Source: a virus
Taxonomy: Duplodnaviria > Caudoviricetes
DNA: 64,000 bases
Strand: one strand, 5' to 3'
IMG/VR virus record: IMGVR_UViG_3300020576_007607
Coordinates: 5,448 to 69,447 of that record
The position numbers were made by a program, and so were the translations under genes. The notes under the pieces were generated by a model. That model was not told the origin of the DNA. It saw nothing but the letters and a program-made list of their open reading frames with translations, and did not search any database. Positions 2,550-28,898 of the stretch are shown in pieces. The first letter of the stretch is position 1; the number at the start of each line of letters is the position of its first letter.

Positions 2550-3116
2550 TCAATTCCAAAGTCGGAGAACGTTTTCCACCTGTTTGAAAACCTCATCGGC
2601 AGTGGTTTCCCCGTCTATGACCACCAATCTGTTCCCACTCTTGTAGAAATCGACCAACGGTTCGGTTTCCTCCCTGTATTGTTTAAGTCTTTTCTCGGCG
2701 ATTTTAGGATCCTTGTCATCTTCCCTTCCGGACGATTTCCCCCTTGACTTAATCCTTTCCTTGGCGGTCTCGTCGGAAACGTCAATATACAGGACCAAAC
2801 CCACGTCTGTCACCTTATCAAGAAACTCTCCCTGGGCGACGGTTCTCGGGGTTCCGTCAATTATGACGGGTGGATTTACCGATTTGATCTTCTCCCTGAT
2901 GATTTCGAATATGATCTCATCGGGAACAAGATTTCCCTTTCCGAGGATGTCGTTTATCTTTTTCCCGATTTCGGAACCCGATTTCTTTTCCTCACGCAGG
3001 ATGTCCCCTGTGGATATGAGAGAGTATCCGTATTTGGAGACCAGGCTTTTAGCCAAGGTTCCTTTTCCGCATCCCGGTTTTCCGAGAAGAATTACATTTC
3101 CATTATACATATTCAT
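2550..3116 (-). CDS. adk: adenylate kinase
   Basis: GKPGCGKGT P-loop, STGDILR, GNLVPD, IDGTPR, GREDD, short LID type. Confidence 0.92.
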   Translation of the reverse strand: MNMYNGNVILLGKPGCGKGTLAKSLVSKYGYSLISTGDILREEKKSGSEIGKKINDILGKGNLVPDEIIFEIIREKIKSVNPPVIIDGTPRTVAQGEFLDKVTDVGLVLYIDVSDETAKERIKSRGKSSGREDDKDPKIAEKRLKQYREETEPLVDFYKSGNRLVVIDGETTADEVFKQVENVLRLWN

Positions 3117-3424
3117 TCCAATATTTTATTTATCTTATCATCCCTGTGATGATTCAACTGAATTGTCATTATCATGTAGACATCCTCATTCATAGGAATT
3201 CCATCCTTAACAAGGACCTGATCAGAGTCTCTGAACATACCCCTTATTCCCGTATTTGTTATTACAGCATATCCGACGGAATGACCATCGGGAGTATTGA
3301 TATTGAAACAATACCCACCTCCGGTCTTGAAATACGAACCGTCAGGTATAAGCATTCTATCAACACGGATATAACCTTTTCCTTTCAATGGAAGGACATA
3401 TTCATTATCCAAGAAAATAGACAT
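3113..3424 (-). CDS. hypothetical protein with C-terminal tag RDDKINKIL
   Basis: Overlapping stop/start with neighbours in a minus-strand operon. Confidence 0.7.
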   Translation of the reverse strand: MSIFLDNEYVLPLKGKGYIRVDRMLIPDGSYFKTGGGYCFNINTPDGHSVGYAVITNTGIRGMFRDSDQVLVKDGIPMNEDVYMIMTIQLNHHRDDKINKILE

Positions 3425-7738: not shown

Positions 7739-9022
7739 TTATTTCAACAATATCCTATTTGGCATCCCAGGCATGTATATCCCAATCAGATCCACCAACT
7801 CCTTCTTAACGACAGGAGTCAAGCTTTTCGATCTTTCCCTGTTCAGCAAGGTCATCCACTCACTGACCACCTTATTGAACTTGAACGACTCGGTATACCC
7901 GAATATCCTTTTCCTGAACTGGTCGACATCAATCGTGTCGTCACCTTCCCTGGACATCCATTCGGAAAAGCGGGAGACGAACCGCTCGACACCCGAGATG
8001 TTCCGATCCGACCAAACACCACCGTCAAAGAAATGAGAAATAAACATCAAATAGAATCTCATGATGTCAGAATCGTAGTCGTCTGGATTGACAACATTTC
8101 CTCTTGACTTTGACATCTTATTCCCATCACCCGCCAATATCATTCCGTTATGGATCAATTTTTTGAATGGTTCTTCACATGGAACTACACCAATGTCATA
8201 CAAAAACATATGTATGAAACGACTGTATATCAAATGATTAGTGGCCAATTCCACCCCGCAACAGTAGGTATCAACCTGTCTGTACTTCTCCATTGAACAG
8301 ATCTCATTTCGGTTTTCTGGATCACAATACCTGATGAAATAAAAAGATGAGTCCACAAAGGTGTCCAATGTATCAGTTTCACCTTCGATCGGTATCGGAG
8401 CCCCGAATTTCCTCTGCCTACCAACCGACCAATCTTTCAAATTTGTCAACCAGTTTCTCTGTATTTTCTTAGTAGATTCTGGATAGTCCAACCAATCCAA
8501 GTTTTTAATCAACCTCTCACGGTAATCTGTTATCCTAAAATACCACTGGTCCATCTTTCTGATCTCAATCCTTTCCGAACACCTCTCACATCTGTCATCC
8601 TTGCACTGCTCGTTGGCCAAGGCAGTCCCGCACGACGGGCACCAATTGACATCGCCGAATTTCTTGTAGGCCAACCCGTGTTCCTTCAATTTGGAGAATA
8701 TCCACTGGGTCCACCTCACATATTCGGGATCATGTGTGGAAAACATCATTTCATACTCGGTTCCCATCGATGACAACTGTCTTTTGAAATTTCGGATGTT
8801 GTCCCAGGCGACATCACTCGGATCCTTACCAACTTTTTGAGCATATAATTCGGTCGGCAATCCATGAGTATCGAATCCCATCGGTTGGAATACCTCATTG
8901 CCCTGATACCTCAAGTATCTGGCGTACGAATCCATAATCCCGTAGGAATAAGCGTGTCCCATGTGAAGAGCTGATGAACTAGGAAACGGAAAGGCTGAAA
9001 GTATATAAATTTGTTTTTTCAT
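7739..9022 (-). CDS. leuS: minimal leucyl-tRNA synthetase (no CP1 editing, leucine-specific or C-terminal domain)
   Basis: AFPFPSSSALHMGH (HIGH), PMGFDTHGLPTE, CPSC/CERC Zn knuckle, QWYFRIT, DTLDTFVDSS, KMSKSRGN; QRNW joined almost directly to DWSVGRQR. Confidence 0.92.
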   Translation of the reverse strand: MKKQIYILSAFPFPSSSALHMGHAYSYGIMDSYARYLRYQGNEVFQPMGFDTHGLPTELYAQKVGKDPSDVAWDNIRNFKRQLSSMGTEYEMMFSTHDPEYVRWTQWIFSKLKEHGLAYKKFGDVNWCPSCGTALANEQCKDDRCERCSERIEIRKMDQWYFRITDYRERLIKNLDWLDYPESTKKIQRNWLTNLKDWSVGRQRKFGAPIPIEGETDTLDTFVDSSFYFIRYCDPENRNEICSMEKYRQVDTYCCGVELATNHLIYSRFIHMFLYDIGVVPCEEPFKKLIHNGMILAGDGNKMSKSRGNVVNPDDYDSDIMRFYLMFISHFFDGGVWSDRNISGVERFVSRFSEWMSREGDDTIDVDQFRKRIFGYTESFKFNKVVSEWMTLLNRERSKSLTPVVKKELVDLIGIYMPGMPNRILLK

Positions 9023-9105
9023 ATCTTTATTTTTTTTAAATGTGAGCAAATTTCTTCTCTAAATCCATAATAACAAGCTGCTCCCTATGTGTAGGGATAT
9101 GGTTT

Positions 9106-9356: not shown

Positions 9357-9624
9357 TGGTTCCACCGAGAATCGAACTCAGATCTGGAGATTAGCTTACC
9401 ACTATGATTTTCATCACCTTTCGTTTGTGGTCTGGACTTTACCTTTACCATATTGTTTCCAACTTAGGTAATCGCCATCAAGTCTCTACACCTTCTATTT
9501 TAATAGCTTGGCTCGGTATTGGCATTTTAAAGCGTTCACCGAATTTGACGATATCCAACAAATCAATTTCTTGATAAGTCGCTCCATTAAAAGTCACCCG
9601 TTTTATCCATTAAACTATGGAACC
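9357..9624 (-). tRNA. tRNA-Leu(UAA), intron-containing; exons 9624-9591 and 9411-9357
   Basis: Acceptor GGTTCCA/TGGAACC + A73, D-arm GTTT/AAAC, anticodon loop CTT^AAAA, 21-nt variable region, T-arm CTGAG-TTCGATT-CTCGG; CCA not encoded. Confidence 0.88.
9412..9590 (-). ncRNA. group I intron (IC3-like), 179 nt, no ORF
   Basis: P/Q/R/S cores GTCAAATTCGGTGAA, AATACCGAGCCAAGC, GAAGGTGTAGAGACTTGATGGCG, AAGGTAAAGTCCAG; P1 CTT/GAG; GAAA loops in P2, P8 and P9; terminal G. Confidence 0.9.
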
Positions 9625-9635
9625 GTTTGTTTTGT

Positions 9636-9652
9636 TATATATTACAAATATA
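9636..9652 (-). promoter_or_regulatory. tandem TATATTTG and TAATATATA motifs upstream of the tRNA
   Basis: Both recurrent motifs lie 12-28 nt before tRNA G1. Confidence 0.65.
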
Positions 9653-9748
9653 TCAACTTGTTTTCAAATGACCAAAATATTCGACAGGAAAAATTCGGCT
9701 ACCTCCCTACAATATTCCCTTTCTATTTCATAGAGATTCTTGTTCATA

Positions 9749-13221: not shown

Positions 13222-15276
13222 ATGAAGAAAATACTAACACTGCTACTCGTCCTACTGAGTTTTGTCAGGATGTCCGGACAGACATGCCCTACCCTTACCG
13301 TATCGACCGGAACGGTCAGCTGCACCACACCATGCACAAGCTTGAACGCTTCCGCCAGCATGGTCAGGAACACCAATACATATACGGTAACACCGACACC
13401 ATACGCCCCTTATTCGTATGTCGCGGGAACTCCGATTCCGACCACCACCGACGACATATATTCGGGTGTCATAACGATGCCGTTCAGCTTCTGCTTTTTC
13501 GGGAACAGCTACAACCAGCTTATAATCGGATCTAACGGAAACGTCTCTTTCAACACGGCCCTTGCCGGACTTTTCGACCCGTGGTCCATATCAGGACCGC
13601 TTCCCGGAAGCTCGGGGAACGCCACCTATAACTCGATTTTTCTCTGGAAGGACATCTATCCACCCGGGGGTGGAGGAACCATCGTCTACAACACCTACGG
13701 AACAGCCCCGTGTAGGAAATTTGTCATATCTTACAACAACCTGCCGATGTTCATACCACCGACCTGCACAAACAGGGCGACACATCAGATAGTGCTCCAC
13801 GAATCCTCCAACATCATCGACATCTATATCGGGGATCACACACCCTGCTCCTCATGGAACTCGGGAAGGGCCATTACCGGTATACAGAGCCCGACCCCCG
13901 GGACTTTCTTCTTCACCGCTCCCGGACAGAACGGAACGGCTTTCACAGCGACAAACCAAGGATGGAGATTTTCACCCAACGGGGGAGTGGTGACCTGGAA
14001 CTATGTCTGGACAGGACCCACCGGAACCGTGGGAACAGGACCCAACGTCATAGTATGCCCGACCGTCACAACCACCTACACCGTTTCGGCAACCACCACG
14101 TCATGCGCCGGAGTCTCCCTGACGGAGACAACCACCGTGACATCGACAATCGCGACCATAAGCGTAATGGGGGATTCCTCGATATGCCAAAACGGTTCGA
14201 CAGTCCTTACTTCACCCATATCAGGAGGAACGTGGGTCAGTTCCAATCCGTCCGTGGCCACGGTCACATCGGGAAACGTTACCGGAGTTTCCCCAGGAAC
14301 CGCCGTCATAACATACGGACTCGGACCTGCCTGTCAGGGAACCAAGACGGTCACCGTCAATCCCGTCTACGACCAGTCTATATCGGACCATATCTGCCAG
14401 GGCGAAACATACGAGTGGATAGACACCACAGTGGACCAGGCCGGATCATACACCAAGAGATTTTCAAGCGTCCACGGATGCGATTCAATAGTGACACTCA
14501 ACCTGACGGTTTATCCCATACCGACCATAAAAATGTGGCTTGATCGCGATTATATGTGTCTTGGGGATAGCGTCTACCTGATGTGGGACACACCTGATTC
14601 GGGAACCACATACATTTTCCAGCCGTCATACATACCTACGTCAACGACGTCAGGATCACACCCACTGACCTGGAACATCGACGGCATCTTCACAGTTTCG
14701 GGTTTCGCCCAGACCGCCTGGTGCCATTCGGACACTGTCAGGAAGACGGTTCTCGTTTCCAAATTCCCGACCGTCAAAATAGACACGATTCCAGACAGGA
14801 TATGTTTCGGGGATGAGATACTGTTCCAGCCCGTGGAAAAATGCCAGGAATGCTTCTATCTTTGGCAGCCTCAGGCATACTTTCCCATCAGAACCGAAAC
14901 CAACGCGTTGGGGATAATAGACTCATCAAGGAAGGTGACACTGAGGGTGACCAACAAATGGGGATGTTCCGCAACCGATTCGATAAACGTGACGGGTGAA
15001 GACTGCTGCCAGTTCTTCCTTCCGAACGCGTTCACTCCGAACGGGGATGGAAAGAATGATTTGTTTAAACCTGTCGGTGGACATATAAGGATAGTGGACT
15101 TCAAGGTGTATAACCGTTACGGACAGCTGGTCCACGAATCGTTCGGATTAAGGGACGGATGGAACGGAAGGTTCAGGGGAGAGGAAGCCGACATGGGAAC
15201 ATACTACTGGCAGATACAATACGAATGCCACGGAAAGGTCCTATTCAAGAAAGGTGATGTCACACTTGTCAGATAA
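13222..15276 (+). CDS. secreted surface protein with T9SS type-B (gliding-motility/CHU_C) C-terminal domain and an Ig-like domain
   Basis: Signal peptide MKKILTLLLVLLSFVRMSG-Q; C-terminus FLPNAFTPNGDGKND...VYNRYG...WNG...GTYYW...KGDVTLVR; WVSSNPSVATV..G.VTGVSPGTA Ig-like segment. Confidence 0.88.
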   Translation: MKKILTLLLVLLSFVRMSGQTCPTLTVSTGTVSCTTPCTSLNASASMVRNTNTYTVTPTPYAPYSYVAGTPIPTTTDDIYSGVITMPFSFCFFGNSYNQLIIGSNGNVSFNTALAGLFDPWSISGPLPGSSGNATYNSIFLWKDIYPPGGGGTIVYNTYGTAPCRKFVISYNNLPMFIPPTCTNRATHQIVLHESSNIIDIYIGDHTPCSSWNSGRAITGIQSPTPGTFFFTAPGQNGTAFTATNQGWRFSPNGGVVTWNYVWTGPTGTVGTGPNVIVCPTVTTTYTVSATTTSCAGVSLTETTTVTSTIATISVMGDSSICQNGSTVLTSPISGGTWVSSNPSVATVTSGNVTGVSPGTAVITYGLGPACQGTKTVTVNPVYDQSISDHICQGETYEWIDTTVDQAGSYTKRFSSVHGCDSIVTLNLTVYPIPTIKMWLDRDYMCLGDSVYLMWDTPDSGTTYIFQPSYIPTSTTSGSHPLTWNIDGIFTVSGFAQTAWCHSDTVRKTVLVSKFPTVKIDTIPDRICFGDEILFQPVEKCQECFYLWQPQAYFPIRTETNALGIIDSSRKVTLRVTNKWGCSATDSINVTGEDCCQFFLPNAFTPNGDGKNDLFKPVGGHIRIVDFKVYNRYGQLVHESFGLRDGWNGRFRGEEADMGTYYWQIQYECHGKVLFKKGDVTLVR

Positions 15277-22675: not shown

Positions 22676-23389
22676 ATGAATTATATTGGAATTGACATTA
22701 GTTTAAATTCAACAGCTATCTATATTGAGTCTAGTGAAGGTAAATTTATACTCTCCTATACCAATAAAAAAGATAATAATATCTACATAAAAGAATTAGA
22801 TAGATGTGGTGTTAAATTTTTTCACCACAACAGGATATCATCCAACGATTACTCTGAAAATGAAATCCTTAAAATCAAACACTATAATATGTTATCCGAT
22901 ATTATAATTTCAGACATATCAAGTCGGATAAACCCAAATGAAAACACATATTGTAATATAGAGGGGTATTCGTTTTCAAAGAATACATCATCCATACTAG
23001 ATATAGTGTCTCTGTCAACTTTAATAAGATCCAATTTAATTAAAACCTTCCCAAATATCGATATCTCAATATTATCACCATCCACCTTAAAAGTTGAGTC
23101 TTGTAAGATTTGCTACAAACCGATAAATGTCGGTATAAAAAAACCAAAGTACGAATATAGAAACAACCAAGGTATATCAGGAGGATCCTTTAAAAAACCA
23201 CAAATGTTCAGAGCTATGGTTGAGGGAAAAATAGATTCCCCAATCTATAAATTTTTGTTAGAATATAAGCACCTTATGGATAGAGATAAAATACCAAATC
23301 CGATAGAGGACATAATTGACTCGATTTTTGCATGTAAAATAAAAATTAATGAAAATGATATTAGACAAGGAAATTCCAATAAAAGTTAA
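22676..23389 (+). CDS. RuvC-like Holliday junction resolvase
   Basis: YIGIDISLNSTA, NIEGYSF, LKV, EDIIDS; TAATATATA at 22663-22671. Confidence 0.75.
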   Translation: MNYIGIDISLNSTAIYIESSEGKFILSYTNKKDNNIYIKELDRCGVKFFHHNRISSNDYSENEILKIKHYNMLSDIIISDISSRINPNENTYCNIEGYSFSKNTSSILDIVSLSTLIRSNLIKTFPNIDISILSPSTLKVESCKICYKPINVGIKKPKYEYRNNQGISGGSFKKPQMFRAMVEGKIDSPIYKFLLEYKHLMDRDKIPNPIEDIIDSIFACKIKINENDIRQGNSNKS

Positions 23390-24551
23390 ATCTTCTAAAA
23401 TAATCTTTAAACTAAAAGAAGTGGGGATACATTGTGAAATTGGAGAAGACGTAATTGTTCCCATAGAAAATTTATGGAAAGGATCTAATATGAAAGTCCT
23501 AGTAAAGTGTGATATATGTGGATTTGAAAAAACGTTATCGTATAACCTCTATAATAAAAATATTTCTAAATACAACATATACTGCTGTAGCAATGTATGT
23601 TCTTCGGTAAAAAACAAAATGACAAGCTTAAAAAATCATGGTGTTGAAAACTATGTAAATAAAGAAAAATCAAAGAAAACTAAACTTGAAAAATACGGCG
23701 ACGAAAATTATATCAATGTCGATAAAATAAAAGAAACAAAACTTAAAAAATATGGAGACGAAAACTACAATAATATGGATCAAATAATTGAGACTAATTT
23801 AATCAGATATGGAGTAAAATCAACTCTTCAGGTTGATGTTTTTTCCGAAAAAGCCAAAAAAACATCAATTGAAAAATACGGCACGACAGACTATAGAAAA
23901 TCCAACTTTATAAAAGAAAAAAGGAAGAAAACTAATATGGAAAAATATGGAGTTGAATCATACATGGAAACAAATGACTTCAGGGAAAAGTCTAAAAAAA
24001 CATCATTAGAAAAATATGGAGTAGATAGCCCAAATAAATCCGACTTAGTTAAACTGAAAAAAGTTACAAAAATGATCGAAAAATATGGATGCATATCAAA
24101 TTCGATGACCACCGAATGTAAAGAAAAAGTCAAAAAAACAAATATGGAACGATATGGTGTTGAATATCCAATGCAACTTTTAGAATTCGCTTCGAAGCAG
24201 TTTAAAAATTCGTTAAGTATAAAATATTTTAATGATAAACTATATTACCAGAGTAGTTATGAAAAACATTTTTTAGATTATATGTCATCAAAAGGATTTG
24301 AAAGTCTAGTAACAAGAGGGTTCCCAATAAAGTATACATTCCAAAATGAAATTAAAATACATTATCCTGACTTTTTCATCGGGAAACTCAATTTGATAAT
24401 TGAGATCAAATCTGACTATTTTTACAAAAAATTCATAGATAAAAACCTTTCCAAGATTAAGAAATGTGAAGAAATGGGTTATAATTATCTATTTATAATA
24501 AATAAAAACTATACACTATTGGATTTTTTTCTTGAACGCCTAAGCATATAA
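23349..24551 (+). mobile_element. putative homing endonuclease (K.K.T.LEKYG repeats + PD-(D/E)XK domain)
   Basis: About 8 EKYG-type repeats; HYPDFFI..IIEIKS; very AT-rich. Confidence 0.75.
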
Positions 24552-27609: not shown

Positions 27610-27647
27610 ATCAACTTTTTTTGTTTCCCAAACTTAATATATATGTT

Positions 27648-28898
27648 ATGGAAAACAAATTTATAGACGAATATCGCAAAGCTCATGGAAACAAATATGA
27701 CTATTCCTTGGTAGATCTGAGAGAAAAGAAAATAAAAATAATATGTCCTATACACGGATTATTCGAACAAAACAAATTCTCACACAAAAAATATGGGTGT
27801 TGGAGATGCTCGGTGGAATACCGAGCATCAATCCAATCATTAGGAAAGGACGACTTTGTTAAAAAATCTGTAGGTATTCATGGAGATAAATATGACTACT
27901 CATTAGTTAAGTATAAGAATAACAATACGAAAGTAGAAATAATATGTCCTATACACGGATTATTCGGACAAACACCTGGTTCACATATGTCTGGAAATGG
28001 ATGTTCGAAATGTGGAACCACTTCGATGGCTTCGAAACAAAGTTATGACACGGAGAAATTTATCGAAAAGTCAAAAAAAATACACGGGGACAGATATGAT
28101 TATTCCTTATCTAAATATATCAATAATCATACCATGATCGACATAATATGTCAAAAACATGGATCATTTAAACAGTCTCCTCAAAATCATATGACTGGAC
28201 AAGGTTGTCCAAAATGTGTAGGTAAATCACTAACAAAAGAAGAAATATTGGACAGGTTTAAAAATAAACACGGAGATAAATATGACTATACAAACTTCAC
28301 TTACTCAACCGAAGAAAAAATAGAGATAATTTGTAAAAAACATGGTGTTTTTAAGCAAAAAATATCCAACCATCTATTTGGACAAGGCTGTCCAAAATGT
28401 GTAGGATTAAAAAAAAATACCTCCGATTTCATTGACGAGTGCATTAACATACATGGAAATATTTATAATTATTCGAAAACAGAGTATAAATCAGCCAAGG
28501 AAAAAGTCATAATCATATGCCAAAAACATGGAGAATTTAAACAAGCTCCAACACATCACCTATCAGGTCAAGACTGTCCAAAATGTAAATGTTCAAAGGG
28601 GGAGAAAAAAGTGAACAACATTTTATTAGAAAATAATATTAACTTTATACATCATTATGAGTTTCCCGATCTAAAAGATCACGAATTTGACTTTTTCATA
28701 CCAGATAAAAACATATGCATAGAATATGACGGAGTTCAGCATTTTAGACCAGTTGCCTTTTTTGGTGGAAAAAATACATTTGATGTCCAAAAAGAAAGGG
28801 ACCGAATAAAAGACGAGTATTGTTTGTTAAAAAATATCACCCTTATAAGGATTGCTTATTTTGATAACATAATGGAAAAAATTAAAAGTGTATTATAA
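27648..28898 (+). mobile_element. putative homing endonuclease (about 5 Zn-ribbon HG.KYDY..C..HG.F.Q..H..G.GC..C repeats + PD-(D/E)XK)
   Basis: Repeats visible; EFDFFIP..CIEYDGVQHF; TAATATATA at 27635-27643. Confidence 0.8.

Follow-up and report, generated by a model that had tools for sequence, protein, structure and literature searches.

The stretch of phage DNA analyzed here, referred to as the window, is 64,000 nt long and corresponds to bases 5448-69447 of a 69,447-bp IMG/VR record (IMGVR_UViG_3300020576_007607) that CheckV rates as 13% complete, indicating that the record is a fragment of a very large phage. Positions 9624 to 9357 of its minus strand hold a tRNA gene split in the anticodon loop by a group I intron, and the genes in the neighborhood include those for a UvsX-like recombinase, an SbcC-like protein, homing-endonuclease-like ORFs, and GreA/GreB. 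The long ORFs of the window read cleanly in code 11, with in-frame stops absent, and a megablast comparison of 25 kb of the window with isolated phages returned no match. The protein encoded at 13222-15276 carries a type IX secretion (T9SS) C-terminal domain, a sequence feature that hints at a Bacteroidota host. A candidate promoter for the tRNA gene, read from the sequence, lies on the minus strand at 9676 to 9645: TTTG (9676..9673) is followed by 20 nt and by TATATTTG (9652..9645), so that the arrangement TTTG-N20-TATATTTG ends approximately 20 nt upstream of tRNA G1. It resembles what we take to be the Bacteroides −33/−7 consensus, TTTG / TAnnTTTG, and fits the hint of a Bacteroidota host from the T9SS-domain protein; a sigma-70 scan of the same region gave at best 9 of 12 matches, which is the level of shuffled sequence. 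Two free-standing ORFs on the plus strand, at 23349-24551 and 27621-28898, are like homing/HNH endonucleases (PHROGs 12131/3339 and 559/681, respectively); the SbcC-like gene lies between them, and nothing evident connects either ORF with the tRNA intron, which itself is ORF-less.

An earlier note on this DNA, made from the sequence alone, had proposed a group I intron here, and the Infernal/Rfam check confirmed it: the Rfam group I intron model RF00028 matches 9600 to 9415 on the minus strand at 57.7 bits, above the gathering score of 50 (E 4.9e-12; 1.3e-15 in a single-genome search), and this match is the sole ncRNA that Rfam finds in the window. Plain ARAGORN over the window called no tRNA. 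The intron spans 9590 to 9395 on the minus strand, is 196 nt long, and lacks an ORF, as delimited by the Rfam match, a gapless alignment, pair counts, a covariance model (R1, below), and invariant columns. Its first base is U9590, directly after U9591, where the earlier note had also put the 5′ boundary, and its omega G is G9395. At the 5′ splice site, the U9591.G9584 wobble is followed by U-A and C-G pairs, and GACTT^ (the caret marks a splice junction) is invariant in the viral intron family. The earlier proposal of an IC3-type intron that interrupts a phage tRNA anticodon after nucleotide 34 is upheld. With ~80% identity to viral Leu.3Ug-type introns and a 26-nt core that also occurs in cyanobacterial and rhizobial tRNA introns, the window intron is, by its sequence, a member of the bacterial tRNA (IC3-type) intron family, with the IC3 label taken from the literature. 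The note had also stated that ORF callers mis-annotate the locus as a 76-aa ORF; a mechanical ORF does exist at 9451 to 9221 (minus strand), but its exact product is absent from a collection of 15 billion proteins, so that the statement gained no backing.

The helices, all on the minus strand, could be placed along the whole intron. P1 (9597 to 9578), read from the sequence, joins exon bases G28 U29..C32 U33 U34 to the guide GAGCGAC (9584..9578), and P10 comes to one pair only, which G9585, just 5′ of the guide, can form with C9394. P2 (9575 to 9562; ATCAA-GAAA-TTGAT, with a GAAA tetraloop) is part of the RNAfold minimum-free-energy structure, and all five of its pairs covary in the family. 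P4 (9543..9537 with 9518..9512; 98.9% paired) encloses a short P5 (9533..9522) with CG/GC covariation, and the P6 stub (9506 to 9495; CTAT-TAAA-ATAG) is 98% paired, with three of four pairs covarying. P3 (9552..9547 with 9476..9471 as the 3′ strand) is 98.7% paired and includes four covarying pairs, while P7 (G[A]GACT at 9486..9481 with AGTCC at 9438..9434) is invariant and 100% paired. The P7 region (9486 to 9434) encloses the 3′ strand of P3 as well as P8 (9469..9447), which has a CCTAAG...TATGG receptor-like internal loop, a GAAA loop, and a proximal part that is 100% paired. P9.0 (ACCAC at 9431..9427 with GTGGT at 9402..9398) is also 100% paired, with a C-G to U-A change in seven sequences, and contains both the P9 mini-hairpin (9423..9418; C-GAAA-G) and P9a (9417..9404; GTGAT-GAAA-ATCAT), the latter being 99.2% paired with compensatory changes in four of its five pairs.

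Across the family alignment, 21 pairs change on both sides, in support of a conserved P3-P8 core with its P3/P7 pseudoknot, and the covariation score of the whole structure is 0.329, as opposed to 0.122 for shuffles (reached by none of 500) and at most 0.09 for slid partners. RNAfold alone recovers P2, P4, P5, P6, P8, P9.0, and P9a. Of 105 alignment columns without variation in 24 relatives, 97 are unchanged in the window intron. Of the rest, five belong to the guide region, where MAFFT shifted the alignment, one belongs to J2/3, and two are the bases that open the 3′ exon (AA to CT); no helix is disrupted. P5 and P6 are indeed as short as the earlier note had described them, but this is not special to the window intron, since short P5 and P6 are common to the whole viral family of ~197-nt introns.

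At the other end of the intron, the 3′ boundary had previously been set at 9412, which is 17 nt early, and the resulting length of 179 nt is replaced by 196 nt on the basis of alignment, pairing, and the R1 model. G9412 opens the GAAA tetraloop of P9a, and bases 9411..9395 (AAAATCATAGTGGTAAG) are made up of the 3′ strand of P9a, the 3′ strand of P9.0, and the terminal AAG, and are therefore intronic. The window sequence can be aligned gaplessly to some 50 related viral tRNA introns and, when extended to 9389, to 24 family introns through GTGAT-GAAA-ATCAT-AG-TGGTAAG^, and G9395 falls on the invariant family terminus GTGGTAAG^ that follows P9.0. After this terminus the window reads CTAATC; the string AAAATC lies inside hairpin P9a. 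A covariance model trained on the 3′ domains of 24 relatives, the window excluded (R1), matches 9500 to 9389 end to end at 107.5 bits (E 4.5e-26); all pairs in the match are standard, and the terminal G is placed at 9395.

A ~17-nt hairpin that seemed to be deleted in the window was an artefact of cutting the MAFFT alignment at 9412, and it was gone once the window was extended. A search pattern with a short P9, AGTCCAGAC-N(8-26)-GAAAATC, found mostly chance matches, and the real introns among them were matched inside P9a rather than at the splice site: in these, GCGAT-GAAA-ATCG forms a hairpin within the intron, and the actual splice site follows later, after TAGTGGTA[A/T]G. It was the failure of this pattern that exposed the misplaced 3′ boundary. 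Four further loci (L174, L193, L206, and L220) have the same hairpin with GAAAATC inside it and a true splice site clearly further on. With ATC behind it, the P9a GAAA loop looks like the Leu-class junction G^AAAATC, a resemblance that created the false 179-nt ribozyme together with an odd tRNA-Leu.

When the exons are joined between 9591 and 9394, ARAGORN reports tRNA-Arg(tct), which is 72 nt long, belongs to class I, and has a D stem of 4 bp, a TGGATA D loop, and a 4-nt variable loop. The spliced anticodon loop is CUUCUAA, with the insertion between nucleotides 34 and 35, and the predicted junction is GACUU^CUAAUC, not GACUU^AAAAUC as had been proposed. The 5′ exon, nucleotides 1-34 (9624 to 9591 on the minus strand; G1 = 9624, U34 = 9591), was delimited by ARAGORN on the joined exons and by homologues; it consists of the acceptor strand GGTTCCA, a 4-bp D stem with the 8-nt D loop AATGGATA, the anticodon-stem strand GGTGA, and C32 U33 U34. 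The 3′ exon, nucleotides 35-73 (9394 to 9357 on the minus strand; C35 = 9394, discriminator A73 = 9357), rests on ARAGORN and on intronless homologues, and CCA is not encoded in the gene. The anticodon stem includes one U29.U41 mismatch.

Independent indications of the tRNA identity come from the intron and from uninterrupted genes. The guide-adjacent base, just 5′ of GAG, should pair with the first base of the 3′ exon and co-varies with it: 48 of 50 Leu-class introns (A35) have T there, and G is found in the window (C35) and in each of the three Arg-class introns that could be assessed, so that the window G calls for C as the first 3′-exon base. An IMG/VR search with the D arm of the window tRNA plus ACTT retrieved 14 contigs, 13 of which carry an uninterrupted tRNA-Arg(UCU) gene that reads GACTT-CTAATC straight through and continues ...GTTCGATTC, with the D arm and the ...GACTT end in common with the window 5′ exon. 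Five of these homologues were compared with the spliced window tRNA, four being 71-73% identical to it and the fifth (L272) 66%. The split arrangement CTT^...GTGGTA[A/C]G^CTAA likewise recurs at the IMG/VR loci L033, L245, L247, and L258, the last with the same guide as the window, AATG-GAGCG. The tRNA body was also ranked against a panel of 353 phage tRNAs; in this body-only ranking Arg(UCU) came first, weakly and by a small margin. The D loop of the window tRNA has A20, which in the E. coli literature is an arginine identity element. The true Leu hosts of the intron family have GTGGCGGAA..GGTAGACGC D arms with a 3-bp D stem and an 11-nt loop. Codon usage in the window fits the Arg(UCU) assignment, as AGA and AGG make up 72% of Arg codons and TTA 7% of Leu codons.

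The host gene, which the earlier note had taken for tRNA-Leu(UAA), is accordingly tRNA-Arg(UCU) by ARAGORN, by the guide base, and by the intronless homologues, and the 21-nt variable region attributed to it exists solely under the wrong splice. ARAGORN with introns allowed gave a further reading, tRNA-Sup(UUA) with a 177-nt intron, which was rejected for its shifted anticodon stem with a C.A mismatch, for ARAGORN's assumption of a canonical intron position, and for the code-11 ORFs free of in-frame stops. What these data establish is that the intron exists, where it begins and ends, how it folds, and which tRNA it interrupts.

Directly downstream of the tRNA gene and on the same strand, 7739-9049 (minus strand) encodes a LeuRS-like protein of 436 aa. 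It matches TIGR00396 (leuS_bact) at 2e-113 with 380 bits, which is below the 548-bit cut-off because the protein is about half the normal length. Relatives with ~50% identity are found in six other IMG/VR contigs. None of the five detected relatives with an upstream flank has an intron-split tRNA beside the LeuRS-like gene (the flank in L403 is 264 nt), and the closest relative has an uninterrupted tRNA-Arg(UCU) nearby and no tRNA-Leu. The tRNA-Arg(UCU) of L402 was considered as a close homologue of the window tRNA and rejected, as only 27 of 72 positions match. The misplaced 3′ splice site accounts for three artefacts: a length of 179 nt, a Leu tRNA with a 21-nt arm, and, by extension, the link to the LeuRS-like gene.

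The best explanation of the locus, to which a probability of roughly 90% was assigned, is a large-phage tRNA-Arg(UCU) gene (9624 to 9357, minus strand) that is split between U34 and C35 by a 196-nt ORF-less IC3-type intron. Counted against it were the U29.U41 mismatch and the single-pair P10, along with the neighboring LeuRS-like gene and the fact that a splice at G9412 passes ARAGORN as tRNA-Leu(UAA). The last two points are also what speaks for a 179-nt intron (9590 to 9412) in a tRNA-Leu(UAA) gene with a 21-nt variable region, terminal G9412, and junction GACUU^AAAAUC: ARAGORN accepts the 9591/9411 splice as a 90-nt tRNA-Leu(taa), the local G^AAAATC mimics the true Leu-class junction AAG^AAAATC, the Rfam alignment ends at 9415, and the LeuRS-like gene is next on the same strand. 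This reading is nonetheless very improbable, since it would place the terminal G in a conserved P9a tetraloop whose hairpin is shared with L174, L193, L206, and L220, and would turn into exon the bases 9411..9395, which form P9a and P9.0 with family-wide covariation. The window exons, moreover, are class I (4-bp D stem, 8-nt D loop), unlike those of the family's Leu genes, the supposed variable arm would be 3 bp with an 11-nt loop, the intronless homologues are tRNA-Arg(UCU), and the guide-adjacent base is G, not T. Still harder to credit is the use of both G9395 and G9412, whereby one gene would supply, besides tRNA-Arg(UCU), a Leu(UAA)-like tRNA with a long arm, to be used by the half-size LeuRS-like enzyme. 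Both spliced forms do fold as tRNAs in ARAGORN, both would have A73, and the neighboring gene is LeuRS-like; if true, this would be ribozyme-driven alternative splicing giving two tRNA identities. However, all of the structural evidence speaks against it. G9412 belongs to the loop of a hairpin and lacks the positioning that P9.0 gives, no family member shows that a second exon frame is under selection, and the match of AUCAU to the anticodon stem amounts to three Watson-Crick pairs and one wobble. TTA is rare, too, and the tRNA near the closest LeuRS-like relative is an uninterrupted tRNA-Arg(UCU), not a tRNA-Leu.

A different objection accepts the intron boundaries and concerns activity: the intron may be a decayed or protein-dependent relic whose self-splicing is no longer efficient, with the gene a pseudogene or in need of a phage or host cofactor. 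Peripheral tertiary contacts are known from the Azoarcus intron, and the very short P5 and P6 of the window intron may make such contacts weak; the U.U mismatch in the anticodon stem and an RNAfold z-score of only −1.9 point in the same direction. This possibility is unlikely, though it carries more weight than either Leu-based alternative. The retention of 97 of 105 family-invariant positions with every helix intact speaks against decay, as does the presence of the P2 and P9a GAAA loops and the P8 CCTAAG/TATGG motif, and the occurrence of short P5 and P6 in dozens of diverged relatives with compensatory changes argues for selection on the fold.

For the preferred reading, a 196-nt intron in tRNA-Arg(UCU), self-splicing by the standard two-step guanosine-initiated mechanism can be inferred. 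The primary transcript would fold into the P1-P9 core, with the guide GAG (9584..9582) pairing with C32-U33-U34 to give the U9591.G9584 wobble. Exogenous guanosine would attack after U9591, whereupon G9395, positioned by P9.0 (ACCAC/GUGGU) just upstream, would take the G site. The 5′ exon would then attack after G9395, and the exons would be joined as GACUU^CUAAUC. End trimming and CCA addition would yield the 72-nt class I tRNA, which is predicted to read AGA and probably AGG, the dominant Arg codons of the phage.

The window intron has numerous relatives in both phages and bacteria. The 26-nt core pattern GGTGYAGAGACTNGAYGG-N5-ACC matched at least 120 IMG/VR contigs, and among the matches listed were 103 calls of intron-containing tRNAs, 76 of them tRNA-Leu(UAA) and the rest including Arg(UCU), Arg(CCU), Met, Gln, Thr, and Lys. 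All 50 unique Leu-class introns among the matches listed have the form GACTT^...AAG^AAAATC and measure 196-263 nt, mostly 196-202 nt. Bacteria have the same core as well, in at least 120 genomes, among them those of cyanobacteria, rhizobia, and Acidobacteria; there, ARAGORN intron sizes among the matches listed range from 194 to 514 nt (median ~235). Given a viral family of 196-202 nt and a bacterial range starting at 194 nt, the claim of an exceptionally small ribozyme does not hold. Shorter introns of 162, 173, and 184 nt were reported by ARAGORN intron mode in oddly assigned tRNAs at three other loci (Ala-ggc in L020, Val-aac in L106, and Lys in L116); these may be similar boundary miscalls, and structure-based mapping is needed before any small-ribozyme claim.

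Other phage sequences carry related elements. Leu-class introns are also present in LR756501 and LR756511, two records from the 'clades of huge phages' set. In the former (LR756501.1, a 735-kb uncultured phage), a tRNA-Leu(UAA) gene at 2920-3210 contains a 205-nt intron of the family that goes unreported at the Rfam gathering threshold and was found by ARAGORN intron mode, indicating that standard pipelines miss such genes. In the latter (LR756511.1, a 595-kb uncultured phage), a 3′ exon of tRNA-Leu(UAA) type follows the same intron terminus at 1100-1650, and the intron, which has an HNH-like ORF with a CPNCH motif upstream of its core, is a mobile version of the family. In Pelagibacter phage HTVC120P (MH598807.1, 19433-20607), the capsid is annotated as two CDS, gp29 and gp30, and the unannotated stretch between them is 73% identical to the core of the window intron; to judge from this identity, it is probably an unannotated group I intron that splits the capsid gene.

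Among known systems, the Azoarcus tRNA-Ile(CAU) intron is the model small IC3 ribozyme. The window intron presumably shares with it the IC3 layout, the L2 GAAA loop together with the P8 CCUAAG/UAUGG receptor-like motif, and the J6/7-P7 segment AAGGUGUAGAGACU. Compared with the Azoarcus intron, which we take to be 205 nt long, the window intron would be 9 nt shorter, with much shorter P5 and P6 and two small hairpins inside P9.0, and it presumably also differs in its tRNA and in its position in the loop. A closer counterpart is the Arg.3Ug class described in bacteria (Williams 2020, bioRxiv 10.1101/2020.01.27.920355, supplement gpI.sto, seed Rba190.Arg.3Ug). Like the window intron, the intron of that seed interrupts a tRNA-Arg behind nucleotide three of the anticodon loop (CUU^C...), has U at −1 and G at omega, and shares the core; its 3′ architecture is that of the window: ACCA-Caaa, a hairpin, a GAAA hairpin, uggu, and aag. 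The window intron differs from the bacterial Arg.3Ug introns in having an uncultured large phage as its host and in being, at 196 nt, at the compact end of the size range, which is 194-514 nt (median ~235) in the bacterial sample. The Leu.3Ug introns of cyanobacteria, plastids, and other bacteria are placed in subgroup IC3 by a database that Williams 2020 cites. With these and the ~197-nt phage relatives, the window intron has in common the insertion between nucleotides 34 and 35, the GACUU 5′ exon, the 26-nt core, and the same helices, but its 3′ exon begins CUAAUC rather than AAAAUC, its guide-adjacent base is G rather than U, and its host is a class I tRNA-Arg rather than a class II tRNA-Leu.

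According to a 2014 review (PMC3984707), all phage group I introns then known were in protein-coding genes, and ones in tRNA genes were unknown. Devoto et al. 2019 (PMC6784885) described 'enigmatic' tRNA introns in Lak megaphages and noted that phage tRNA introns were previously unreported. Like the window phage, for which a Bacteroidota host is hinted at, the Lak phages are huge, infect Bacteroidota, and have interrupted tRNA genes; in contrast to the window intron, which is clearly group I, the Lak introns were not classified as group I in that study. No publication on group I introns in phage tRNA genes came up in literature searches.

With regard to origin, the window intron is ~80% identical to its nearest viral relatives, which are Leu-class introns, and the two target sites, GACTT^AAAATC (Leu) and GACTT^CTAATC (Arg), differ at two bases only. 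Both facts are consistent with a lineage that moves between tRNA-Leu(UAA) and tRNA-Arg(UCU) genes, as they suggest, and we infer that the intron was once mobile and is now most likely carried as a selfish passenger, with other members of its lineage in tRNA-Leu(UAA) genes.

The group I intron at this locus, 196 nt long, of Arg.3Ug type, and housed in a phage tRNA-Arg(UCU) gene, is thus real, ordinary, and of a kind already known; this arrangement is known in bacteria and is common, yet unannotated, in IMG/VR phages. The main value of the result is corrective, in that neither a record-small ribozyme of 179 nt nor an odd tRNA-Leu is present. The trap set by the P9a loop could also affect other 'very compact' phage tRNA-intron calls, as well as pipelines that trust the 3′ boundary given by ARAGORN or Rfam. 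For phage biology, the locus is a further example of group I introns that are common and unannotated in phage tRNA genes.
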